DNA of 64,000 nt from Escherichia coli (GTDB lineage: Bacteria; Pseudomonadota; Gammaproteobacteria; Enterobacterales; Enterobacteriaceae), in NCBI RefSeq assembly GCF_009931435.1, contig NZ_CP043414.1. One strand, given 5' to 3'. The position numbers were made by a program, and so were the translations under genes. Every line of letters begins with the position of its first letter. Position 1 is the stretch's first letter. The notes beneath the pieces were generated by a model. The model had not been told where the DNA came from and did not search any database. It saw nothing but the letters and a program-made list of their open reading frames with translations. Shown piece by piece: positions 5,657 through 53,624 of this stretch.

Positions 5657-6322
5657 TTAACTCGCCTGCAAAGCGTTGATTTCGGATTTATCTGCCAGTC
5701 TTTTCAACAGCATATTGAGTAATACGCCATACATTGGCAGGAAGAAAACGATACTGATTAACACTTTGAAACAGTAATCGACCAGCGCGATTTCCATCCA
5801 GTGTTCAGCCATAAAGGCATCTGGGCTGCGCCAGAAGGCAATGAAGAAGAAGGCCAGCGTGTCGCTGACGTTCCCAAACAGGGTGGAAGCCGTCGGTGCC
5901 AGCCACCAGCGACGACTCTGACGCAGGCGGTTAAAAACGTGCACGTCGAGGATTTGCCCCAGCGCGTAGGCCATGAAACTGGCGGTGGCGATACGGGCGA
6001 CAAACAGGTTGAAGTGGGCGAGCGCGCCGAACCCCTGCCATGAACCCATATAGAACAGCGACGAGATGACGTAGGAGATCAGCAATGCGGGGATCATCAC
6101 CGCAAAGATGATGCGACGAGCCAGCGGCGCGCCAAAAATACGCACAGTCAGGTCGGTAGCAAGGAAAATAAACGGAAAGCTAAACGCGCCCCAGGTGGTA
6201 TGGAAACCAAAAATGGATACGGGAAGCTGAACCAGATAGTTACTGGAGGTGATCACCAACAGATGAAATAACGATAACCAGAACAACGCCTTATAGCGTT
6301 GAGTTTGCGAGAAAACGTTCAT
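5657..6322 (-). CDS. yhhQ: queuosine-precursor transporter YhhQ
   Basis: 221-aa polytopic membrane ORF matching YhhQ. Confidence 0.9.
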   Translation of the reverse strand: MNVFSQTQRYKALFWLSLFHLLVITSSNYLVQLPVSIFGFHTTWGAFSFPFIFLATDLTVRIFGAPLARRIIFAVMIPALLISYVISSLFYMGSWQGFGALAHFNLFVARIATASFMAYALGQILDVHVFNRLRQSRRWWLAPTASTLFGNVSDTLAFFFIAFWRSPDAFMAEHWMEIALVDYCFKVLISIVFFLPMYGVLLNMLLKRLADKSEINALQAS

Positions 6323-6542
6323 ATTGTACCTTTTTGATTAACCATTGGGGTGAGGGAACCCAATACGTACGACACGTCTGTTACCTTAACATAATAACGT
6401 GCTGACCCTTTTTTCGAGCCGCCGCATGATACTGCTTTACGTTGACAATGCAATGGTTAATTTTCACGCAATCGTTAACCTGGTTTGCTTACGGACTCAC
6501 AGGGCGTAAACTAGCGCCGTTTTTTTATGTGATGAGAAGAAA

Positions 6543-6788
6543 ATGACCGATCTCTTTTCCAGCCCTGACCACACACTCGACGCACTTGGCCTGCGCTGCC
6601 CGGAACCAGTAATGATGGTGCGCAAAACTGTGCGCAATATGCAGCCAGGTGAAACGTTGCTGATTATTGCTGACGATCCGGCGACGACACGCGATATTCC
6701 TGGGTTTTGTACCTTTATGGAACACGAACTGGTTGCGAAAGAGACCGATGGACTGCCTTATCGTTATTTGATTCGCAAATCGGGGTAA
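6543..6788 (+). CDS. tusA: sulfur carrier protein TusA
   Basis: 81-aa ORF with the conserved [11 protein letters not shown] motif; matches TusA. Confidence 0.95.
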
Positions 6789-6843
6789 GGTGGATCAGGC
6801 TAGCGGACCGATCGCGCTCAATTTTGCGGCTTGAAACCGGTTT

Positions 6844-7079
6844 GTAGGACGGATAAGGCGTTCAAGCTGCATCTGGCGATACGGTGCACAATGCCTGATG
6901 CGACGCTGTCGCGTCTTATCATGCCTACGAGTTCTATGCTCTGTGTAGGACGGATAAGGCGTTCACGCCGCATCCGGCGGTTGTGTGTGGATGCCTGATG
7001 CGACGCTGTCGCGTCTTATCATGCCTACGAGTTCAATGCCCTGTGTAGGCCAGATAAGGCGTTTACGCCGCATCCGGCA
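6844..7079. repeat. BIME cluster of five REP units in alternating orientation
   Basis: GTAGGACGGATAAGGCGTTCA..GCATC.GGCG and its inverted partner GCCTGATGCGACGCTGTCGCGTCTTATCATGCCTAC recur with ~100-bp periodicity (units start near 6844, 6893, 6946, 6993, 7045). Confidence 0.8.
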
Positions 7080-7102
7080 CGCAAACGTAATGGAATGCAC
7101 AA

Positions 7103-7411
7103 ATGGATTATTTAATTCCAGTTTGTCTGGCATTGCTGGGATTGCTCGCGATCTTCACCCCCAATTGGCTGATCCCTGTTTTTATCGTCGTGGGGGGATG
7201 GCTGGGGGTACTTGCCTGGGGTTGGCTCTGGCTAATGATTTTTTTACCTTTACTTAACGGTGTCGGGCTTGCTTATGCCCTGTGGTTGATGTTCAAAAGG
7301 CCATCCATAGCATCCCGCCTGGTTGCTGCATGCTGTGTTATCTCCGTCATTCTGATGTTAGCGCTTTATTATGCTTTCCTGACTATGCCGCCGTTCCCGC
7401 CTCAGCACTAA
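7103..7411 (+). CDS. hypothetical small membrane protein (102 aa, about 3 predicted TM segments), unnamed
   Basis: ORF with strongly hydrophobic, Trp/Leu-rich, CTG-biased coding; weak GGAA upstream of ATG; followed by a 10-bp-stem hairpin; no match recalled to a named K-12 gene. Confidence 0.45.
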   Translation: MDYLIPVCLALLGLLAIFTPNWLIPVFIVVGGWLGVLAWGWLWLMIFLPLLNGVGLAYALWLMFKRPSIASRLVAACCVISVILMLALYYAFLTMPPFPPQH

Positions 7412-7436
7412 GCCTGATAGCCAGAGGCTATCAGGC
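7412..7436. terminator. bidirectional hairpin between the 102-aa ORF and convergent zntA
   Basis: GCCTGATAGC-CAGAG-GCTATCAGGC, perfect 10-bp stem, flanked by T-rich sequence on the + strand and lying 8 bp downstream of the zntA stop. Confidence 0.6.
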
Positions 7437-7443
7437 AACACTT

Positions 7444-9642
7444 TTACTTCCTGCGCAACAATCTTAACGCATTCGCTGTTACCAGCACCGTCGCACCCGT
7501 ATCTGCCAGCACCGCCAGCCATAGTCCGGTCATCCCTAACAGCGTTGTGACGAGGAAGATCCCTTTCAGCCCCAGCGCAATGGTGATGTTCTGGCGGATG
7601 TTGGCGTGAGTGGCGCGTGCCAGTTCAATCATCTGCGCCAGGCCGCGCAGGTGGTTATGGGTTAATGCTGCGTCGGCGGTTTCCAGCGCCACATCTGTGC
7701 CACTGCCCATTGCAATTCCTATGGCGGCAGCTTTCATGGCGGGCGCGTCGTTAATACCGTCACCGACCATCGCCAGAGGCGCATGTTGATTCAGCTCGGT
7801 CACCGCTTTGACTTTATCTTCTGGTAATAGGCCCGCTTTAAATTCCAGCCCCAGTTCACCGGCGATTGCCGCCGCTGCGCGTGGATTATCGCCAGTGAGG
7901 ATCACCCCTTTGACACCCAGGGCGCTCAGTTCGCTGATGGCAGTTGCGGCGTCGGCGCGCAGGGTATCCTGCAATGCAATTACGCCAAGCACGTCATCGT
8001 TACGCACCACCAGTACTACCGTTTGCCCGGCGCTTTCCAGTTCGTTAATTAAACCAGCAAATGCAACAGCCGGATGTTTTCCGGCAGCGCATATCAACAC
8101 GCGCTCGCCGTTAATCAGTGCTTCAATACCAGACCCGACCAGCGCCCGCTGTGATTCGGCGGCGGGAATGGCGAGTTCAGCAACCTGTGCTTCGCGTACG
8201 ATGGCTTGCGCCAATGGATGCGTCGCGCCTTGCTCGACCGCCGCTGCCAGTGTCAGCAGTTCAGATTCACTAATACCCGTTGCCGGATGAATCGCGGTAA
8301 CGCGCGGTTTACCGACGGTCAGCGTACCGGTTTTATCAAACGCCACCTGGGTAACACGACCTAGTTGTTCCAGCGCCGCACCGCCTTTAATCAACGCCCC
8401 ACGACGCGCTGCGGCTGCCAGCCCGGAGGTGATCGCCGCAGGTGTTGAGATCACCAGCGCACACGGGCAGCCAATCAGCAGCAGCGTCAGCCCTTTATAA
8501 ATCCACTCCTGCCAGCTTGCGGCAAACAGCAGCGGCGGCACCAGCGTCACCAGCAGGGCGACGGCCATAATCGCTGGCGTGTAAATACGGCTGAAACGGT
8601 CGATAAACCGCTCAATCGGTGCGCGGCGCTCTTCAGCTTCTTCGATCAGTTTCAGAATCCGGTCAATGGCGCTGGCACCCGGTTCTGACAGCACTTCCAG
8701 CGTTACCAGACGGTCTACGCTGGTGGCGCCTGCAGGAACTTTATCACCCGTCGCGCGTTCCACCGGAATGGATTCGCCGGTCAGGGCGCTTTCATCAAAA
8801 CTGGCAAAGGGCGAGAGCAGTTTACCGTCGGCAGGTAAACGCCCACCTGCCGCAACTTCGATAACATCGCCCGGACGCAGGCTGTTAATTGCTACCTCTT
8901 CACGCTTGCCATTACGCAGGCGCGTGGCGGTTTCCGGTTTCAGCGCCATTAACGCGCTGACCCCTTGACGCGCGCGGCTGGCGGCCCAGCCTTCCAGTCG
9001 TTCACCAATCAAAAACAGCAGCAACACCATCGCAGCTTCAGCCGTTGCGCCAATAAACAGCGCACCAATAGCGGCTACGCTCATTAAGGTTTCAATAGCG
9101 AAGTAGCTGCCGGATTTGATCAGCCGTAATGCCTGACGAGCAATCGGGTACAGCCCAACCAGCGTGGTCGCGATAAACGCCAGTTGACCGAACGGATGAT
9201 TAAACTGCTCCAGACCCCAGCTGATTGCCATCAACACGATTAGCGTAATCAGCGGCAGATTCTCTTTCAGGCGTGATTCTTGTTGTTCGTCGGCGGACTG
9301 TTCATCGCGCAGGGAATAGCCCGCTTTTTGCACCGCAGATTCAACTTGTGCACGGATGTCATTGTCGGCATCAACCACCAGTTTTTCGGTGGCGAACAGC
9401 ACCTGCACCTGATTCACGCCTGCAAGCTGGCGCACGGCATTTTCTACCTTGCGCGCGCAGGCGGCGCAGTCCATGCCGCTGACTTTCCAGCTATAGCGGG
9501 TGCCGGAGACGTTTTCAGAGAGCGTTGGCGTGCTGGAACATGCGCCGTCGCAGCAACAGTCGTTGACGTTCTGTACCGTGGTTAGCGGTTTGAACGCAGA
9601 AAATTGAGGGGCTTTCTTGCCGTGATTGTCAGGAGTCGACAT
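7444..9642 (-). CDS. zntA: Zn/Cd/Pb-exporting P-type ATPase ZntA
   Basis: 732-aa ORF with N-terminal metal-binding GMDCAAC, CPC motif and DKTGTLT phosphorylation motif. Confidence 0.95.
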   Translation of the reverse strand: MSTPDNHGKKAPQFSAFKPLTTVQNVNDCCCDGACSSTPTLSENVSGTRYSWKVSGMDCAACARKVENAVRQLAGVNQVQVLFATEKLVVDADNDIRAQVESAVQKAGYSLRDEQSADEQQESRLKENLPLITLIVLMAISWGLEQFNHPFGQLAFIATTLVGLYPIARQALRLIKSGSYFAIETLMSVAAIGALFIGATAEAAMVLLLFLIGERLEGWAASRARQGVSALMALKPETATRLRNGKREEVAINSLRPGDVIEVAAGGRLPADGKLLSPFASFDESALTGESIPVERATGDKVPAGATSVDRLVTLEVLSEPGASAIDRILKLIEEAEERRAPIERFIDRFSRIYTPAIMAVALLVTLVPPLLFAASWQEWIYKGLTLLLIGCPCALVISTPAAITSGLAAAARRGALIKGGAALEQLGRVTQVAFDKTGTLTVGKPRVTAIHPATGISESELLTLAAAVEQGATHPLAQAIVREAQVAELAIPAAESQRALVGSGIEALINGERVLICAAGKHPAVAFAGLINELESAGQTVVLVVRNDDVLGVIALQDTLRADAATAISELSALGVKGVILTGDNPRAAAAIAGELGLEFKAGLLPEDKVKAVTELNQHAPLAMVGDGINDAPAMKAAAIGIAMGSGTDVALETADAALTHNHLRGLAQMIELARATHANIRQNITIALGLKGIFLVTTLLGMTGLWLAVLADTGATVLVTANALRLLRRK

Positions 9643-16262: not shown

Positions 16263-16480
16263 GGACCTCTGCAATAATCAATTACCCCCTCCGACAAAAC
16301 GCCAATCCCCACGCAGATTGTTAATAAACTGTCAAAATAGCTATTCCAATATCATAAAAATCGGGTATGTTTTAGCAGAGTATGCTGCTAAAGCACGGGT
16401 AGTCATGCATAAAACGAAATAAAGTGCTGAACAACAACATCACAACACACGTAATAACCAGATGAATGGGGATTCTCAGG

Positions 16481-17584
16481 ATGAATATAAAGGGTAAAGC
16501 GTTACTGGCAGGATGTATCGCGCTGGCATTCAGCAATATGGCTCTGGCAGAAGATATTAAAGTCGCGGTTGTGGGCGCAATGTCCGGTCCGGTGGCCCAG
16601 TACGGCGACCAGGAGTTTACTGGCGCAGAGCAGGCAGTTGCGGATATTAACGCTAAAGGCGGTATCAAAGGCAACAAACTGCAAATCGTAAAATATGACG
16701 ATGCCTGTGACCCGAAACAGGCGGTCGCGGTGGCGAACAAAGTCGTTAACGACGGCATTAAATATGTCATTGGCCACCTCTGTTCTTCATCAACGCAGCC
16801 AGCGTCTGACATCTACGAAGACGAAGGCATTTTAATGATCACCCCAGCAGCAACCGCACCAGAGCTGACCGCCCGTGGCTATCAGCTGATCCTGCGCACC
16901 ACCGGCCTGGATTCCGACCAGGGGCCGACGGCGGCGAAATATATTCTTGAGAAAGTGAAACCGCAGCGTATTGCTATCGTTCACGACAAACAGCAGTACG
17001 GCGAAGGTCTGGCGCGTGCGGTGCAGGACGGCCTGAAGAAAGGCAATGCTAACGTGGTGTTCTTTGACGGCATCACCGCCGGGGAAAAAGATTTCTCAAC
17101 GCTGGTGGCGCGTTTGAAGAAAGAGAATATCGACTTCGTTTACTACGGTGGTTACCACCCGGAAATGGGGCAGATCCTGCGTCAGGCACGCGCGGCAGGG
17201 CTGAAAACTCAGTTTATGGGGCCGGAAGGCGTGGCTAACGTCTCGCTGTCTAACATTGCGGGCGAGTCAGCTGAAGGGTTGCTGGTAACCAAGCCGAAGA
17301 ACTACGATCAGGTTCCGGCGAACAAACCAATTGTTGACGCGATCAAAGCGAAAAAACAGGACCCAAGCGGCGCGTTCGTCTGGACCACCTACGCCGCGCT
17401 GCAATCTTTGCAGGCGGGCCTGAATCAGTCTGACGATCCGGCTGAAATCGCCAAATACCTGAAAGCGAACTCCGTGGATACCGTGATGGGGCCGCTGACC
17501 TGGGATGAGAAAGGTGATCTGAAAGGCTTTGAGTTCGGCGTATTTGACTGGCACGCCAACGGCACGGCGACCGATGCGAAGTAA
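16481..17584 (+). CDS. livJ: Leu/Ile/Val-binding periplasmic protein LivJ
   Basis: ATG at 16481 ([23 protein letters not shown] signal peptide); 367 aa; paralog of LivK. Confidence 0.9.
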
Positions 17585-17644: not shown

Positions 17645-17743
<99 letters not shown>

Positions 17744-17784: not shown

Positions 17785-18168
17785 TTAACGCTTCTCCCAG
17801 CCGCCCTGTTGTGCCGTAAACCCCAGCGCCTGCATAAACGCCGTCATCACGCCGCGATCTTCCACGCCTGCATCCGCCATCCACCAGCCTGAAACGCCAG
17901 GATTGTTACGCAAAACCTCTTCCAGCAGATATTGCCCCACACCGCGACGTCGGGTGACTTCCCGCACGTGCAGGGAATCCAGTGCCCCCTCGGTGCCGTT
18001 TAAGGTTACCCGCACGGCCGCGAGCAGGCGCTCGTTAAAACGCGCGGCGTAGATGCGGTGGTTATCGTCAACCTGTAAAGAGGAAGGGGAGTACTCCGGC
18101 CAGATCTTTTGCAGGTCAATCCGGTCCTGGTCGCTAAAGTGTTCTAAACGAATGATGGTCAGCTTCAT
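17785..18168 (-). CDS. panM: PanD maturation factor PanM (PanZ/YhhK), GNAT fold
   Basis: 127-aa ORF matching PanM; lies between livJ and livK. Confidence 0.85.
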   Translation of the reverse strand: MKLTIIRLEHFSDQDRIDLQKIWPEYSPSSLQVDDNHRIYAARFNERLLAAVRVTLNGTEGALDSLHVREVTRRRGVGQYLLEEVLRNNPGVSGWWMADAGVEDRGVMTAFMQALGFTAQQGGWEKR

Positions 18169-22714: not shown

Positions 22715-23428
22715 ATGGAAAAAGTCATATTGTCCTTTGACAAAGTCAGCGCCCACTACGGCAAAATCCAGGCGCTGCATGAGGTGAGCCTGCATATCAA
22801 TCAGGGCGAAATTGTCACGCTGATTGGCGCGAACGGGGCGGGGAAAACCACCTTGCTCGGCACGTTATGCGGCGACCCACGCGCCACCAGCGGGCGAATT
22901 GTGTTTGATGATAAAGACATTACCGACTGGCAGACGGCGAAAATCATGCGCGAAGCGGTGGCGATTGTCCCGGAAGGACGTCGCGTCTTCTCACGCATGA
23001 CGGTGGAAGAGAATCTGGCGATGGGCGGCTTTTTTGCTGAACGCGACCAGTTCCAGGAGCGCATAAAGTGGGTGTATGAACTGTTTCCACGTCTGCATGA
23101 GCGCCGTGTTCAGCGGGCGGGCACCATGTCCGGCGGTGAGCAGCAGATGCTGGCGATTGGTCGCGCGCTGATGAGTAACCCACGTTTGCTATTGCTTGAT
23201 GAACCCTCGCTCGGACTGGCACCGATTATCATCCAGCAAATTTTCGACACCATCGAGCAACTGCGCGAGCAGGGGATGACCATCTTCCTCGTCGAGCAGA
23301 ACGCCAACCAGGCGCTAAAGCTGGCGGATCGCGGCTATGTGCTGGAAAACGGTCATGTCGTGCTTTCCGATACCGGCGACGCGCTACTGGCGAATGAAGC
23401 GGTGAGAAGTGCGTATTTAGGCGGGTAA
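22715..23428 (+). CDS. livF: branched-chain amino acid ABC ATPase LivF
   Basis: ATG at 22715 (MEKVILSFDKV...); 237 aa; Walker A GANGAGKTT. Confidence 0.9.
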   Translation: MEKVILSFDKVSAHYGKIQALHEVSLHINQGEIVTLIGANGAGKTTLLGTLCGDPRATSGRIVFDDKDITDWQTAKIMREAVAIVPEGRRVFSRMTVEENLAMGGFFAERDQFQERIKWVYELFPRLHERRVQRAGTMSGGEQQMLAIGRALMSNPRLLLLDEPSLGLAPIIIQQIFDTIEQLREQGMTIFLVEQNANQALKLADRGYVLENGHVVLSDTGDALLANEAVRSAYLGG

Positions 23429-23489
23429 TAACACGTTGATTGATAAGGAGTCAAAAGACTCCTTTGAGACAGGTTACAAATGTAAAATT

Positions 23490-23589
<100 letters not shown>

Positions 23590-23688
23590 TGAAACGATGA
23601 GCAATCTGTAGAGTTTGATTAAGACCTTCTATTTTTCCCGCTTATCCGTGCCCCATCTCCCATTTTCCCTCACCCGCGCCGTCACCGC

Positions 23689-23825: not shown

Positions 23826-25142
23826 ATGAAACCGTTACATTATACAGCTTCAGCACTGGCGCTCGGACTGGCGTTAATGGGGAATGCACAGGCAGTGACG
23901 ACCATTCCGTTCTGGCATTCTATGGAAGGGGAATTGGGTAAAGAGGTGGATTCTCTGGCCCAACGTTTTAACGCCGAAAACCCGGATTACAAAATTGTAC
24001 CGACCTATAAAGGCAACTACGAACAGAATTTAAGTGCGGGAATTGCCGCATTTCGTACCGGCAACGCGCCGGCTATTTTGCAGGTTTATGAAGTTGGCAC
24101 CGCCACCATGATGGCGTCGAAAGCCATTAAACCGGTGTATGACGTGTTTAAAGAAGCGGGGATTCAATTCGATGAGTCGCAGTTTGTGCCGACGGTTTCA
24201 GGCTACTACTCCGACAGCAAAACCGGACATTTACTCTCCCAGCCGTTCAACAGCTCGACTCCTGTTCTCTATTACAACAAAGATGCTTTCAAGAAAGCGG
24301 GATTAGACCCGGAACAGCCGCCGAAAACCTGGCAGGATCTGGCAGACTATGCCGCGAAACTGAAAGCCTCCGGTATGAAGTGCGGCTACGCCAGCGGCTG
24401 GCAGGGCTGGATCCAACTGGAAAACTTTAGCGCCTGGAACGGTCTGCCGTTTGCCAGCAAAAACAACGGCTTTGACGGCACGGACGCGGTGCTTGAGTTC
24501 AACAAGCCGGAGCAGGTGAAACACATCGCCATGCTCGAAGAGATGAACAAGAAGGGCGACTTCAGCTACGTCGGTCGTAAGGATGAATCCACCGAGAAGT
24601 TCTATAACGGTGATTGCGCGATGACCACCGCCTCTTCTGGTTCTCTTGCCAATATTCGTGAGTACGCCAAATTCAACTACGGCGTAGGTATGATGCCTTA
24701 CGACGCCGATGCGAAAGATGCGCCACAAAACGCCATTATCGGCGGAGCCAGCCTGTGGGTGATGCAGGGCAAAGATAAAGAAACTTACACCGGCGTGGCG
24801 AAGTTCCTCGACTTCCTTGCTAAGCCAGAAAACGCTGCCGAGTGGCATCAGAAAACCGGTTATCTGCCAATCACCAAAGCGGCGTATGACCTGACCCGTG
24901 AGCAGGGCTTTTACGAGAAAAACCCAGGGGCGGATACCGCGACGCGTCAGATGCTGAACAAGCCGCCGTTGCCGTTCACCAAAGGGCTGCGTCTGGGCAA
25001 TATGCCGCAGATCCGCGTGATTGTGGATGAAGAGCTGGAAAGCGTGTGGACCGGTAAGAAGACGCCACAGCAGGCGCTGGATACCGCTGTTGAGCGTGGG
25101 AACCAGTTACTGCGCCGCTTTGAGAAATCTACGAAGTCTTAA
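23826..25142 (+). CDS. ugpB: sn-glycerol-3-phosphate-binding periplasmic protein UgpB
   Basis: 438-aa ORF with signal peptide; first gene of ugpBAECQ. Confidence 0.95.
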
Positions 25143-25152
25143 CCAGTGAAAT

Positions 25153-25219
25153 GTCGGATGCGTTTCGCTTATCTGACCTGGCATCGCGTGTAGGCCGGAT
25201 AAGCGAAGCGCATCCGGCA
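25153..25219. repeat. REP element(s) between ugpB and ugpA
   Basis: GTAGGCCGGATAAGCGAAGCGCATCCGGCA preceded by a degenerate REP-like palindrome. Confidence 0.65.
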
Positions 25220-31732: not shown

Positions 31733-31822
31733 GCGATCAGGAAGACCCTCGCGGAGAACCTGAAAGCACGACATTGCTCACATTGCTTCCAGTATTACTT
31801 AGCCAGCCGGGTGCTGGCTTTT
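31733..31822 (+). ncRNA. ryhB: iron-responsive small RNA RyhB
   Basis: 90 nt GCGATCAGGAAGACCCTCGCGGAGAACCTGAAAGCACGACATTGCTCACATTGCTTCCAGTATTACTTAGCCAGCCGGGTGCTGGCTTTT matches recalled RyhB; ends in a GCCAGC/GCTGGC hairpin plus T9; sits in the yhhY-yhhX intergenic region. Confidence 0.9.
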
Positions 31823-31945
31823 TTTTTTGACCTTTCGTTCTCAATTTATCCACGGGAAGTGCTTGTGTTTGTTATGCGCACTCCTGTAGGAACCGCGTCC
31901 GCTTTGCGCTAAGGTGTAAATAACCACCTTAAAAAGGACGAAATC

Positions 31946-48735: not shown

Positions 48736-50253
48736 ATGGAAAGAATAATGCAAAACAGAAAATGGATTTTGACCTCGCTGATAATGACTTTTTTCGGCAT
48801 CCCCATACTGGCGCAATTTTTGGCAGCGGTTATTGCCATGCTGGGGGCCGGGCTTGCCGCTATTCTTGAGGCTTGCAATTTACTCTTTACGCCAACAATT
48901 TATCTTCTACTCAACATCTTTATGCTGACGCTGGGGGCGATAATCCTATTTTTCTCTGGTCGCGTGTGGGCCGGTGATAGCGCACCAGAAAACAGAGAAA
49001 TAGCCGTCTGGCGGCAATGCTTTTTTCTTTTACCTGCACTGTTAACTCTGGTTGGCTGGATAATCACGCTACATCTGGCAGATTATCAACTTCGCCAGCT
49101 GGGAGCGGGTTGGTTGGCAAATCTTATGCTCCCCTGGCTGGGCGTATTGTTAGTCTCATTAGTCGGTGGTGAGTACTGGTGGATAGTCATTATTCCCGTT
49201 GGCGCGCATATCAGTTTTTCGCTGGGGTACGGCTGGCCAACCAGACATCCTTTAACCGGCACGTACGGGTTACGTTGCCGTAATTCCCTCCTGTTTATCC
49301 TTCTCATGCTGGTTTTTGTCGCTGGTTATCAGGCTTATTTATATAAACAGCTTAATCCTGGTGTTGGTGTACGCGAAAATATTGATACCTGGGCCTGGCG
49401 ACCCGATAAACTCAATAATCAACTGACGCCACTGCGTGGTAAACCGCAAATTCAGTTTACACAAAACTGGCCGCGACTCGATGGTGCTACGGCGGCGTAC
49501 CCAATTTATGCTTCTGCCTTTTATGCGTTGAGCGTTATACCGGAAGATTTCCACACCTGGGAATATCTGGAGAACTCTCGTACCCCCGATGCATATAACA
49601 GGATTGTTAAAGGTGATGCCGATATTATTTTTGTGGCGCAACCTTCCGGTGGGCAGAAAAAACGTGCAGAGGAATCGGGCGTCACTTTGAACTACACTCC
49701 TTTCGCCCGTGAAGCATTCGTTTTCATCGTCAATGCGGATAACCCGGTTAATTCCCTGACTGACCAACAGGTGCGTGACATCTTCAGTGGCGTAATTACC
49801 AACTGGCGTACTGTTGGCGGTAACGATCAGGAGATCCAGACCTGGCAACGCCCGGAAGACTCTGGCAGCCAGACAGTGATGCAATCGCAGGTCATGAAAA
49901 ATGTCCGCATGATCTCGCCGCAGGAAACCGAAGTGGCAAGCATGATGGAGGGAATGATTAAAGTTGTTGCCGAATACCGTAATACAAACAACTCAATAGG
50001 CTACACCTTCCGCTATTACGCAACACAAATGAACGCCGATAAAAATATAAAACTGCTAGCTATTAACGGTATTGCACCGACTGCGGAAAATATTCGTAAC
50101 GGCAAATATCCGTATATCGTCGATGCCTTTATGGTAACGCGGGAAAATACTACGTCAGAAACACAAAAACTGGTCGAATGGTTTTTAATGCCGCAGGGGC
50201 AGAGTCTGGTGGAAGATGTGGGCTATGTGCCGCTGTATCCAACAATGAAATAA
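48736..50253 (+). CDS. fusion protein: N-terminal polytopic membrane module (about 200 aa, 5-6 TM) plus C-terminal PstS-family (phosphate-binding-protein-like) domain
   Basis: 505-aa ORF (alternative ATG at 48748 has better SD spacing); hydrophobic N-terminus; C-terminal half is about 60% identical by eye to the next gene and carries PstS-like motifs (DIFSGVITNWRTVGG; RPEDSGSQTVM; IGYTFRYY). Confidence 0.7.
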   Translation: MERIMQNRKWILTSLIMTFFGIPILAQFLAAVIAMLGAGLAAILEACNLLFTPTIYLLLNIFMLTLGAIILFFSGRVWAGDSAPENREIAVWRQCFFLLPALLTLVGWIITLHLADYQLRQLGAGWLANLMLPWLGVLLVSLVGGEYWWIVIIPVGAHISFSLGYGWPTRHPLTGTYGLRCRNSLLFILLMLVFVAGYQAYLYKQLNPGVGVRENIDTWAWRPDKLNNQLTPLRGKPQIQFTQNWPRLDGATAAYPIYASAFYALSVIPEDFHTWEYLENSRTPDAYNRIVKGDADIIFVAQPSGGQKKRAEESGVTLNYTPFAREAFVFIVNADNPVNSLTDQQVRDIFSGVITNWRTVGGNDQEIQTWQRPEDSGSQTVMQSQVMKNVRMISPQETEVASMMEGMIKVVAEYRNTNNSIGYTFRYYATQMNADKNIKLLAINGIAPTAENIRNGKYPYIVDAFMVTRENTTSETQKLVEWFLMPQGQSLVEDVGYVPLYPTMK

Positions 50254-50278
50254 CGCTCGAGAGAAAGGAATCAGCGCA

Positions 50279-51271
50279 ATGAATAAATTCACCGGTGTTT
50301 TACTATTAGGTACGGCGTTACTGGCGGGATGTGTCGACCGGGAAGGGTACTATAACAGCGTCAGGGAAGAAGAGAGTCATGGACTGACGTCTCTGCGGGG
50401 GCAACCTGAATTACGTTACAGCGATGATTGGTCAAGATGGCCGAGAGTGTACGGCGCTACAGCCTTATACCCGCTGTATGCCTCCGCGTATTATGAATTA
50501 GTACCCGAGCCAAAAGATAAGGATCGAACCTCGCTGGCCTGGCAGGCGTATGGTTTGCAACAAACCCGAACAGCTGAAGCCTACGATAGTCTGATCAAGG
50601 GTACCGCGACGGTTATTTTTGTTGCACAACCGTCGGAAGGACAGAAAAAACGTGCAGAAGAAGCAGGCGTTAAACTGAAATATACCGCGTTTGCCCGCGA
50701 AGCCTTTGTCTTTATCGTTGATATCAAAAACCCGGTTAATTCACTTAGCGAACAGCAGGTCAAAGACATTTTTAGCGGTAAAGTGAGTCGCTGGAATAAA
50801 GTGGGCGGCGGTGACGAAAGTATAAAAGTCTGGCAGCGGCCAGAAGATTCTGGAAGCCAAACGGTTATGAAGGGACTGGTTATGCAAGATACTCCAATGC
50901 TGCCAGCCAAAAAATCCACTGTTATCGATCTTATGGGCGGTTTAATTACCGAAGTCGCCGACTACCAAAACACACCATCTTCCATTGGATACACCTTCCA
51001 CTATTACGTCACACGTATGAATGACAATATGCTCAAAATGCGCAAACAGATCAAACTGCTGGCTATAAATGGCGTTGCACCTACAGAGGAAAATATCCGT
51101 AACGGCACTTATCCGTACATAATTGATGCTTATATGGTGACGCACGAAAACCCTACGCTGGAAACGCAGAAATTCGTCGACTGGTTTTTAAGCCCGCAGG
51201 GACAGCAATTGGTAGAGGATGTGGGGTATGTGCCGATTCATGACGCATCATACGAATCATCAGTGCAATAA
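50279..51271 (+). CDS. PstS-family (phosphate-binding-protein-like) lipoprotein
   Basis: 330 aa; lipobox LLAGC after signal peptide; AAGGAA SD 8 nt upstream; motifs GATALYPLYASAY, DIFSGKVSRWNKVGG, RPEDSGSQTVM, IGYTFHYY align to E. coli PstS motifs (GAGATFPAPVYAKW, IYLGKIKKWDD, RRADGSGTSFVF, IGYVEYAY). Confidence 0.75.
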   Translation: MNKFTGVLLLGTALLAGCVDREGYYNSVREEESHGLTSLRGQPELRYSDDWSRWPRVYGATALYPLYASAYYELVPEPKDKDRTSLAWQAYGLQQTRTAEAYDSLIKGTATVIFVAQPSEGQKKRAEEAGVKLKYTAFAREAFVFIVDIKNPVNSLSEQQVKDIFSGKVSRWNKVGGGDESIKVWQRPEDSGSQTVMKGLVMQDTPMLPAKKSTVIDLMGGLITEVADYQNTPSSIGYTFHYYVTRMNDNMLKMRKQIKLLAINGVAPTEENIRNGTYPYIIDAYMVTHENPTLETQKFVDWFLSPQGQQLVEDVGYVPIHDASYESSVQ

Positions 51272-51873
51272 TGATGAATAAAATCAGACTTTATATTCCT
51301 CCGTTAATTCTTGGTTTTGTTATTGTGCCGTTGTTGGTGTGGCCGACGGTGGTTGCGCTGGCTGCTTCTGTTATCACGCTGAGTTTTCTGGGAGAGATAC
51401 TGTTCTCTATCCCGCTCATGATCAGGCATATTTCGCTTCTGCAATTACAACTATGGTTATCGGCTGAATATGCGCTTTTCTGCTGTGCAATGGTGGGCGT
51501 TGGTTGGCAATTTGCTCGTATAACTCAATCTGAATTGAAAAGCAGACTGCATTGTTGGCTGGTATTTGCACCAGTTTATTTCTGGTTGCTCCTGTGGAAT
51601 ATCATTTTCTATGTCGCGCCAGCGAATATTGCGTTGCTGGAGAATATGCGCAGTTTCTTTCTGACAGTTGTCTGGCTCCCACTAAATTTTTCACCATTTT
51701 GGTCCCAACCGTGGATTGACTTTGTCGGTCCAATAAGCGCACAGCTTGGTTTTGCGTTGGGATATTATTGCCAGTGGCGTAGCAAAAATAGAAGCCAGAT
51801 ACGGAAGTGGAGTGAGTGGGGAACGTGCCTGAGTTTTGTTACGTTGGGTATGATGGCGTGGGCTTTGCGGTAA
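51271..51873 (+). CDS. polytopic membrane protein, paralog of the N-terminal module of cluster gene 1
   Basis: 200 aa; ATG overlaps previous stop (TAATG); segment VGPISAQLGFALGYY resembles VGAHISFSLGYGW in gene 1. Confidence 0.65.
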   Translation: MMNKIRLYIPPLILGFVIVPLLVWPTVVALAASVITLSFLGEILFSIPLMIRHISLLQLQLWLSAEYALFCCAMVGVGWQFARITQSELKSRLHCWLVFAPVYFWLLLWNIIFYVAPANIALLENMRSFFLTVVWLPLNFSPFWSQPWIDFVGPISAQLGFALGYYCQWRSKNRSQIRKWSEWGTCLSFVTLGMMAWALR

Positions 51874-51923: not shown

Positions 51924-52023
51924 ATGCCGGATGCGACATGAACGTCTTATTGGCCTACAAGACCATGCAAATTCAATATATTGCATAAGCCACGTAGGCC
52001 TGATAAGCGTAGCGCATCAGGCA
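51924..52023. repeat. REP pair (BIME) between the cluster and glpD
   Basis: GCCGGATGCGACATGAACGTCTTATTGGCCTAC and inverted GTAGGCCTGATAAGCGTAGCGCATCAGGCA, followed by TTTTTTGTTT. Confidence 0.75.
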
Positions 52024-52085: not shown

Positions 52086-53591
52086 TTACGACGCCAGAGA
52101 CAACCTCTGCTGCGTATACTCCCCCAGCCACTGACTCACACGAGATTGTTGATCCGCATTCAGCCACATGCCTTGTTTTGTGCGACGCCACAGGGCATCG
52201 TCGGCGCGGCGGACCCATTCGTGATCCACAAGGTATTTCAGCTCCGCTTCGTAGAACTCATGACCGAAATCTTCCCCGAGATCGCCTATCGCCCCCGCAT
52301 TGCCGAGCAGCAGTTCGCTGTTGCTGCCGTAAGTGCGCGCGTAGTGACGTGCCAGCGATTCAGTCAGGAACGGGTAACGGCGGCGCAGGCGGGCGGCATA
52401 ATCGTCGCGATCGCCTTCAATGGCACCACCCGGCAGCACGCTCTCTTTCGTCCACGCCGGGCCAATGCCCTGATAATACGGCGTCAGTTTTTCCAGCGCG
52501 TGCTCCGCCAGTTTGCGGTAGGTGGTCAGCTTACCGCCGAATACCGATAACAGCGGAGCTTTGCCGTTTTCATCATGGATATCAAGGGTGTAATCACGGG
52601 TAATGGCCTGCGGCGAATCAGATTCATCATCACACAGCGGACGCACACCGGAGTAGGTCCAGACGATATCGTCCCGGCTTAGCGGCTTTTTAAAGTGCGC
52701 GTTATACACTTTCAGCAGGTAATTGATTTCACTCTCTTCAATCTTCACCGCTTTCGGATCGCCTTTATACTCCACATCGGTGGTGCCGATAATGGAAAAC
52801 TCGTCCATCCACGGGATCACGAAGACAATACGTTTATCTTCGTTTTGCAGAATGTAGGCTTGCTTCTGGGTATGCACACGCGGCACGACAATATGGCTGC
52901 CTTTGATCAGGCGAATGCCATAAGGTGAGGGTAGATGCATCCCGTCGTCGAAGAACTGCTTCACCCACGGGCCGGTGGCGTTCACCAGACCGCGTGCCTG
53001 CCAGCTGTATTTTTTACCGGTATCAATATCTTCTGCTTCTACAATCCACAGGCCGTTTTCGCGGCGAGCAGAAGTGGCACGAGTACGGGTAAGCACTTCA
53101 CCGCCTTTACGCACCACCATCTGGGCGTTGGCGAGTACCAGACGGGCGTCGTCTACCCAACAGTCGGAATATTCGAATCCGCGCTTAATTTCCGGTTTTA
53201 ACACTGAATTTGTGCCAAAACGCAAACCGGTTGATCCCGGCAGGCTGGTGCGTTTACCCAGATGATCGTACATAAACAGACCAATACGGATCATCCACGC
53301 CGGACGCAGATGCGGGCGATGCGGCAGGCGAAAACGCATCGGGAAAGCGATATGGGGGGCCATTTTCAGCAACACTTCACGTTCAGCCAGCGCCTCGCTG
53401 ACCAGACGGAATTCATAGTGCTCAAGGTAGCGCAGGCCACCATGAATGAGTTTTGAACTGGCGGAAGAGGTCGCACAAGCGAGATCCTGCGCCTCCAGCA
53501 TCAGCACGGATAAACCGCGTCCAGCGGCGTCTGCCGCGATACCAGCACCATTGATGCCGCCACCTATCACAATCAGATCTTTGGTTTCCAT
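52086..53591 (-). CDS. glpD: aerobic glycerol-3-phosphate dehydrogenase GlpD
   Basis: ATG at 53591 (METKDLIVIGGGINGAGIA..., FAD motif); 501 aa; track ORF starts at an upstream GTG. Confidence 0.95.
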   Translation of the reverse strand: METKDLIVIGGGINGAGIAADAAGRGLSVLMLEAQDLACATSSASSKLIHGGLRYLEHYEFRLVSEALAEREVLLKMAPHIAFPMRFRLPHRPHLRPAWMIRIGLFMYDHLGKRTSLPGSTGLRFGTNSVLKPEIKRGFEYSDCWVDDARLVLANAQMVVRKGGEVLTRTRATSARRENGLWIVEAEDIDTGKKYSWQARGLVNATGPWVKQFFDDGMHLPSPYGIRLIKGSHIVVPRVHTQKQAYILQNEDKRIVFVIPWMDEFSIIGTTDVEYKGDPKAVKIEESEINYLLKVYNAHFKKPLSRDDIVWTYSGVRPLCDDESDSPQAITRDYTLDIHDENGKAPLLSVFGGKLTTYRKLAEHALEKLTPYYQGIGPAWTKESVLPGGAIEGDRDDYAARLRRRYPFLTESLARHYARTYGSNSELLLGNAGAIGDLGEDFGHEFYEAELKYLVDHEWVRRADDALWRRTKQGMWLNADQQSRVSQWLGEYTQQRLSLAS

Positions 53592-53624
53592 GCTGCCCTC
53601 ATTCACTTTCGTTAAAGCTCATAA

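Follow-up and report, generated by a model that had tools for sequence, protein, structure and literature searches.

The window, that is, the whole 64-kb stretch of DNA that was analysed, carries tusA on its + strand (6543-6788) as an ORF of 81 aa, which bears the tusA annotation in every matching E. coli record. The 3′ flank of this gene holds an array of REP units, which starts 55 nt past the tusA stop codon and is extragenic, lying between that stop (6788) and the start (7103) of a second ORF on the + strand. The second ORF (7103-7411) encodes a very hydrophobic product of 102 aa, is annotated as a hypothetical protein in RefSeq relatives, and co-varies with the array at the locus. Both tusA and this ORF are convergent with zntA (7444-9642, − strand), which forms the right boundary of the segment that varies among strains.

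An edit-distance scan against the Y, Z1 and Z2 consensus sequences resolves 6844-7078 into five REP units whose orientation alternates, Y(−) Z2(+) Y(−) Z2(+) Y(−). Zero-error matches at other loci and the Rfam naRNA4 consensus both validate the consensus strings used. Unit 1 (Y1; 6844-6877, − strand) is the most degenerate, with 4 errors against the Y consensus. The head-to-head linker S1 (GATACGGTGCACAAT; 6878-6892), which resembles the consensus linker of naRNA4/REP325, separates it from unit 2, which is of the Z2 type (6893-6928, + strand) and has 2 mismatches to the Z2 consensus. Beyond the tail-to-tail linker l1 (GAGTTCTATGCTCTGT; 6929-6944) lies unit 3 (Y2; 6945-6978, − strand) with 1 mismatch to the Y consensus, followed by the second head-to-head linker, S2 (GGTTGTGTGTGGAT; 6979-6992), which is unlike S1 (7/15). 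Unit 4 (6993-7028, + strand), again of the Z2 type and with 2 errors against that consensus, is identical to unit 2 at 36/36 positions, and the tail-to-tail linker l2 (GAGTTCAATGCCCTGT; 7029-7044) joins it to unit 5 (Y3; 7045-7078, − strand), which has 2 mismatches to the Y consensus. At no more than 3 mismatches the Y consensus has 4 matches and the Z2 consensus 2 in the 64-kb window, where 100 shuffles give an expectation of 0, and the two Z2 units of the tusA array are the sole ones in the whole 64 kb. The five alternating REP units downstream of tusA that an earlier note on this DNA had described are therefore borne out by the consensus scan. The tandem periodicity that it had also claimed is found as well: Tandem Repeats Finder reports 6843-7078 as 2.3 copies of a period of 100 (88% matches, 0 indels, score 360), and repeat finding independent of that program gives an 88-nt direct repeat of 94% identity (6891-6978 against 6991-7078). 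A 36-nt sequence also occurs in three copies within the array, at spacings of 101 and 100 nt.

The tetranucleotide GTAG leads the Y units on the + strand (6844, 6945 and 7045) and the Z2 units on the − strand. In predicted folding, each REP unit forms a bulged hairpin that contains an internal mismatch. The fold of Y1 is the least stable (−9.6 kcal/mol), those of the other units lying near −14.5 kcal/mol (unit 2, −14.8 kcal/mol with a z of −4.7; unit 3, −14.4 kcal/mol; unit 5, −14.7 kcal/mol). The 320-nt 3′ flank of tusA as a whole has a minimum free energy of −138 kcal/mol and a z of −3.96. In a simple scan for terminators, the array showed none of the canonical intrinsic kind and one weak terminator-like match inside Y2, and a promoter scan found no sigma-70-like site in 6300-7600.

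These features place the array among BIME-2 elements, which by definition repeat y and z2 units in tandem, have REP and iREP joined by a short S linker, and carry flanks of the s, l or r type, and whose copy number and linker sequence at a given locus differ among strains (PMC3333891). BIME-1, in turn, is a single y-L-z1 pair, the L linker of which often carries an IHF site (PMC3333891; PMC1187871). According to the summaries in PMC3333891 and PMC1187871, these classes come from Gilson, Bachellier and Hofnung, and the passage of PMC1187871 that cites Bachellier 1997 attributes marked length polymorphism among isolates to BIME-2 loci. Of the units of the tusA array, three are of the Y type (1-4 errors) and two of the Z2 type (2 errors each), on strands − + − + −, and its S linkers measure 15 and 14 nt, as against 35-36 nt for the L linkers of the BIME-1 copies in the window. 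It holds 2.3 tandem modules, with alleles of 0, 1, 3 and 5 REPs at the locus among 5,426 genomes, and its location is extragenic, as is that of the family. Its tail-to-tail linkers, GAGTTC(T/A)ATGC(T/C)CTGT, are 16 nt long; those of the BIME-2 beside rayT are 16-17 nt long and of different sequence. The requirements of the transposase TnpA_REP (RayT) for its substrates, namely a 5′ GTAG and an imperfect palindrome with a stem mismatch, have been described (PMC3333891); the array has the GTAG in its sequence, and its predicted hairpins contain internal mismatches. In short, the array has in common with the family the alternation of Y and Z2, the short S linker, the intergenic site and tandem modules of ~100 bp, and there is no difference in kind.

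It is thus very probable that 6844-7078 is a BIME-2 element, and specifically a rare five-unit allele of an old array that has been reshuffled by recombination. The region is best annotated as a BIME-2 repeat of ~2.5 Y-S-Z2 modules, not as a gene or a regulatory novelty. Y-S-Z2 is a highly repeated family: for an 84-nt query of this kind, the median number of matching places in an E. coli genome is at least 36. Indeed, the array is a textbook member of a repeat family that has long been known, as has its length polymorphism between strains. REP and BIME-2 arrays, their association with gyrase, their strain length polymorphism and their link to RayT have been in the literature since the 1980s-1990s. 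Because the locus is empty in K-12, the tusA array is missing from BIME catalogues based on that strain. The import of the locus beyond annotation is small, and what is mildly interesting is a non-local S2 in a rare five-unit allele, the allelic series, and the orphan ORF.

The allelic series was established by reading the length of the gap from the span, in each genome record, between REP-free concatenated anchors (tusA with the end of zntA, or tusA with the ORF). REP-free anchors were used because queries with full-length alleles give three-REP genomes 100% coverage through joined overlapping pieces. With the anchors tusA and zntA end, 5,425 complete E. coli genomes matched, from which 60 were sampled at even spacing. 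The span is 704-705 bp, K-12-like and with neither REP nor ORF, in 49 of them (~82%); five (~8%) span 871 bp, with a palindrome and three REPs and with no ORF; and four bear the ORF, three at 1158 bp and one at 1088 bp. The corresponding span of the window itself is 1258 bp. The K-12 genome has no annotated feature in the tusA-zntA gap. By the anchors tusA and ORF, 316 of the 5,426 complete E. coli genomes carry the ORF. Among the 60 of these 316 that are most like the window, the span is 801 bp (three REPs) in 59 and 902 bp in the remaining one. With anchors from a phylogroup-D-like allele, all 60 rows span 801 bp (three REPs), and with those from strain A30, ~52 genomes span 730-740 bp (one REP). 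Direct reading of sequences gave one REP in A30 and three in 2017-02-2CC, SMS-3-5, 2021CK-01784 and ESM2.2, the last of which lacks the ORF. Five REPs were found in two genomes, R32_14_1F and 2020CK-00188, within an array-length survey that took in ~170 of the 316 ORF-bearing genomes, and more alleles of five units or longer may exist. The comparison of REP copy number across strains, which had been proposed as a check, thus returned 0, 1, 3 and 5 REPs. The tusA-zntA gap is therefore a compact hypervariable locus, with 0, 1, 3 or 5 REPs and with or without a palindromic insert and the 102-aa ORF, and might be of use for typing, as a marker, or for the study of BIME-2 expansion and contraction, as a small natural test bed.

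The array of R32_14_1F is identical to that of the window and is preceded by a palindrome-bearing segment that is absent from the window. The two genomes are 98.6-98.9% identical over 40 kb of flank, and both the array and the ORF are identical between them; identity here despite such flanks indicates that the allele has moved between backgrounds by recombination. In the comparison of 6800-7443, R32_14_1F is identical to the window from ~6830 through the ORF, and the 3′ end of its tusA is A30-like. The tusA region of R32_14_1F is accordingly read as a recombination mosaic with its breakpoint just upstream of the array. The segment that the window lacks, of ~50 bp, lies just past the tusA stop (6789-6810; 890-960 in the R32_14_1F record) and bears the G+C-rich palindrome CCCCTCACCCTAACCCTCTCCCCAGAGGGTTAGGGTGAGGGG. 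R32_14_1F, A30, K-12-like strains and E. marmotae all possess this segment, which may resemble boxC-type intergenic repeats. The final codons of tusA read KSG* in the window and KGG* elsewhere.

Outside E. coli, E. marmotae has a homologous three-REP array with the same locus-specific variants, namely a decayed Y1, the S1 linker, and a Z2 with TGTCGCG; three units with the locus-specific base variants are also what most E. coli that retain the ORF possess. In other clades, one Y occupies this position and a Z2 lies just past the tusA stop. A REP at the site is thus old, and the three-unit array is older than the divergence of E. coli and E. marmotae. On these sequence comparisons, the K-12-like state is interpreted as a deletion of the array together with the ORF, the ESM2.2-like state as a deletion of the ORF alone, and the five-unit state as a rare derived expansion of an ancestral array of three units. 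The 102-aa ORF itself matched no family in a Pfam scan. Its homologues are confined to Escherichia, where they occur in E. coli, in E. marmotae, in further clades of the genus and, as a fragment, in E. albertii. The ORF is conserved in length, and its context is invariably yhhQ-tusA-ORF-zntA; it is absent from K-12. With a pN/pS of 0.11-0.44, the ORF appears to be under purifying selection; probably it encodes a genuine small membrane protein, an orphan, and has been lost at least twice.

How the fourth and fifth units were gained can be approached by comparing the two complete modules. Module A (6844-6944) and module B (6945-7044) are identical at 88/101 positions, and the identity is unevenly distributed, with 36/36 in Z2, 31/34 in Y, 14/16 in the tail linkers and merely 7/15 in the head linkers, so that 8 of the 13 differences are packed into the 15-nt head linker. 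The description of the linkers in the earlier note as nearly identical therefore suits the tail-to-tail linkers but not the head-to-head ones. Likewise, a module of ~100 bp does recur, but the claim that it is repeated almost exactly goes too far, because with head linkers of 7/15 the segments 6844-6928 and 6945-7028 are ~87% identical. The closest three-REP relatives correspond to the window minus exactly one 100-bp module, consisting of Z2, a tail linker, Y and an S linker. A recent simple tandem duplication of a local 100-bp segment, by replication slippage or unequal sister exchange and with no other sequence involved, would account for this length difference of exactly 100 bp, for a period of exactly 100 without indels, and for the likeness of the Z2 units and of the tail linkers. 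Such an event is nevertheless rather unlikely. The concentration of 8 of 13 differences in one linker indicates that the array is no fresh simple duplication, and doubling of the three-REP allele of the relatives would place S1 twice and l2 twice, which is not observed. Moreover, S2 is nearer to the S linker of the BIME-2 on the side of rayT (12/14) than to S1. The term duplication thus fits the structure of the array, and not necessarily its origin.

In the preferred reading, that of an old array reshuffled by recombination, the extra module would derive from recombination between repeated units, either through unequal crossing-over or through strand exchange catalysed by RayT; that its S linker is a different S variant argues against a recent plain duplication. 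The independent five-unit array of 2020CK-00188, which reads Y1-S1-Z2-l2′-(hybrid Y)-S1-Z2-l1-Y2, would illustrate the first of these routes. Its hybrid Y corresponds to the terminal Y in the 5′ part and to the first Y in the 3′ part, a signature expected of unequal crossing-over in which the terminal Y of one copy recombines with the first Y of a second copy. The order in the window, Y1-S1-Z2-l1-Y2-S2-Z2-l2-Y3, is unlike this construction. Recombination between the two identical Z2 units of the window would remove 100 bp and produce the three-REP allele of the relatives, save for one base of S1. The element may on the whole be regarded as semi-selfish repeat DNA, maintained and reshuffled by recombination.

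No local source of S2 was found. Among 5,426 complete E. coli genomes, a single one, R32_14_1F, has the exact Y2-S2-Z2 junction, at the same locus, and an exact donor was found at no other locus in these genomes. A search with the 22-nt S2 junction in one genome per species gave two unrelated chance matches, in metagenome-assembled genomes and without REP context. Outside the locus, Y-S2-Z2 is best matched (95.2% over 84 nt) by the BIME-2 that immediately follows rayT in other E. coli (454-634 and 449-635 in two extracts from such strains). There, the S linker, GGTTGTGCGCGGAT, is identical to S2 at 12/14 positions, that is, it differs at two linker bases. This BIME-2 flanking rayT (yafM) belongs to the ‘REPtron’ substrates of TnpA_REP (PMC3333891). 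Like it, the tusA array has kept the tetranucleotide GTAG, a mismatch in the stem and iREP sites that contain CT, whereas the tail linkers of the two differ and the 64-kb window contains no rayT gene. The annotation of O55:H7 CB9615 lists rayT as a pseudogene, interrupted by an internal stop. TnpA_REP cleaves at CT sites in the iREP and the linker and assembles multi-REP products in vitro, and this work on cutting and joining was motivated by the variation among strains in the linkers and copy number of BIME-2 (PMC3333891). The extra 100-bp module might therefore be the footprint of a recombination by RayT at a linker site, with the hybrid-Y allele of 2020CK-00188 representing the homologous route; we consider this reading unlikely, and the likeness between S2 and the rayT-side linker may reflect the family consensus alone and not a relation of donor and recipient. 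If it were true, BIME-2 arrays would grow in vivo by transposase strand transfer too, beyond homologous unequal crossing-over, and the tusA-zntA allelic series (0, 1, 3, 5a and 5b) would separate the two mechanisms of growth. An exact occurrence of CCGGCGGTTGTGTGTGGATGCC at an ectopic locus would favour gene conversion or transfer by RayT.

As to what the array might do, REP hairpins protect the mRNA upstream of them from 3′ exonucleases, and they can also attenuate read-through. A read-through transcript of tusA would carry five stable hairpins, which would be expected to block 3′ exonucleases and to attenuate read-through into the ORF. At the level of DNA, gyrase cleavage sites are enriched in BIME-2, with Y favoured over Z2, and this cleavage is independent of transcription, persisting or rising under a block of transcription (PMC6379681). 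A description of BIME-2 elements as topological barriers, or barriers to supercoil diffusion, has also been published (PMC10592627). By its family, the tusA array would be a candidate gyrase site, and its position between convergent units (tusA and the ORF against zntA) would be a sensible place for such a site or barrier. Since ~82% of E. coli in the 60-genome sample are without the array, any local role is dispensable.

The Y-S-Z2 units also match the Rfam model naRNA4 (RF02564), with 67.5 bits at 6948-7025 (+ strand) against a gathering score of 59.5, and with 58.4 bits, just under that score, for a second unit at 6847-6925 (+ strand). Scores on the − strand are far lower, and the + strand is the sense strand of tusA; read-through tusA transcripts would accordingly contain naRNA4-like Y-S-Z2 units in sense orientation. 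Transcription of the Y-l-Z2 units of REP325 yields HU-binding naRNAs, and naRNA4 is one of its six such units (PMC4550694). The array could thus be primarily a small-RNA locus, the source of nucleoid-associated RNAs like naRNA4 that condense DNA with HU, as has been reported for REP325. Both matches indeed lie on the strand transcribed from tusA, and REP325 has the same Y-linker-Z2 design, its transcripts being thought to be driven by the promoter belonging to the upstream gene (PMC4550694). REP325, or naRNA1-6, located between yjdM and yjdN, also resembles the tusA array in that repeated Y-linker-Z2 units lie downstream of a gene in sense orientation. However, REP325 has six units with a constant linker and the tusA array two and a half units with two differing head linkers, the likeness being one of sequence. 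Furthermore, the Rfam model in effect fits any Y-S-Z2 pair (median of at least 36 places per genome), the nucleoid phenotype is known for REP325 alone, and most E. coli are without the array. A primary role as a small-RNA locus is therefore quite improbable.

The earlier note had further suggested that such arrays can bind gyrase and IHF and that similar REP pairs bound livJ/panM, livF/ugpB, ugpB/ugpA and the glgP-glpD cluster. All of these REPs exist, but the livJ/panM, livF/ugpB and glpD pairs belong to a different subfamily, BIME-1 (Y-L-Z1). The REP scan located them at 17645-17743 (Y-L-Z1), between livJ (16466-17584) and panM (17785-18168, − strand); at 23490-23588 (Z1-L-Y), between livF (which ends at 23428) and ugpB (23826-25142); and at 51926-52022 (Y-L-Z1), between a 200-aa ORF (51271-51873) and glpD (52086-53606, − strand). 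The gap between ugpB and ugpA (~25150-25218) holds one good REP (25190-25218) and one degenerate REP. The linker motif AATTCAATATATTG, said to be common to positions near 23530 and 51966, does occur at 23530-23543 (− strand) and 51970-51983 (+ strand), where 0.02 occurrences are expected in the 64-kb window. That the tusA array is itself an IHF-binding BIME of the RIP or RIB type might be suggested by these L-motif copies of BIME-1 (23490-23588 and 51926-52022) and by the related L linker at 17645-17743. The array shares with BIME-1/RIP the REP superfamily, three copies of BIME-1 being present in the same window, but BIME-1 has Z1, a 35-36 nt L linker with an IHF motif, and a single copy, and the array, with Z2 and 14-15 nt S linkers, has none of these. 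A motif scan found neither the IHF consensus WATCAANNNNTTR nor the L motif in 6844-7079, and the IHF site is assigned to the L linker of BIME-1 (PMC3333891). IHF binding by the tusA array was thus rejected as highly improbable, and IHF is to be attributed instead to the BIME-1 copies at the other sites in the window.

Finally, although short tandem repeats misassemble easily and three units are by far the commonest length, it is scarcely credible that the five-unit length is an assembly artefact of a truly three-unit repeat, and this was rejected because the independently assembled complete genome R32_14_1F has a base-for-base identical five-unit array in a different flanking context and because the inner module has unique sequence (S2, l1 and Y2) that collapse or expansion of identical copies cannot yield.

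Some further observations concern the surroundings of the BIME-1 copies and the rest of the window. The gap between livF and ugpB (23429-23641), which contains BIME-1, measures 213 bp in the window; in R32_14_1F it measures 913 bp and encodes a tetratricopeptide-repeat protein, and this is interpreted from the sequences as a presence/absence replacement at the site of the BIME-1. From glgP to glpD, three ORFs of 505, 330 and 200 aa occupy 48736-51873 on the + strand, and they are annotated in R32_14_1F as two PstS-family phosphate-binding proteins and a hypothetical protein. These three ORFs look like an accessory insert, bounded by BIME-1 on the glpD side. The small RNA RyhB is found at 31762-31826 (+ strand) with 83.1 bits, above the Rfam gathering score.
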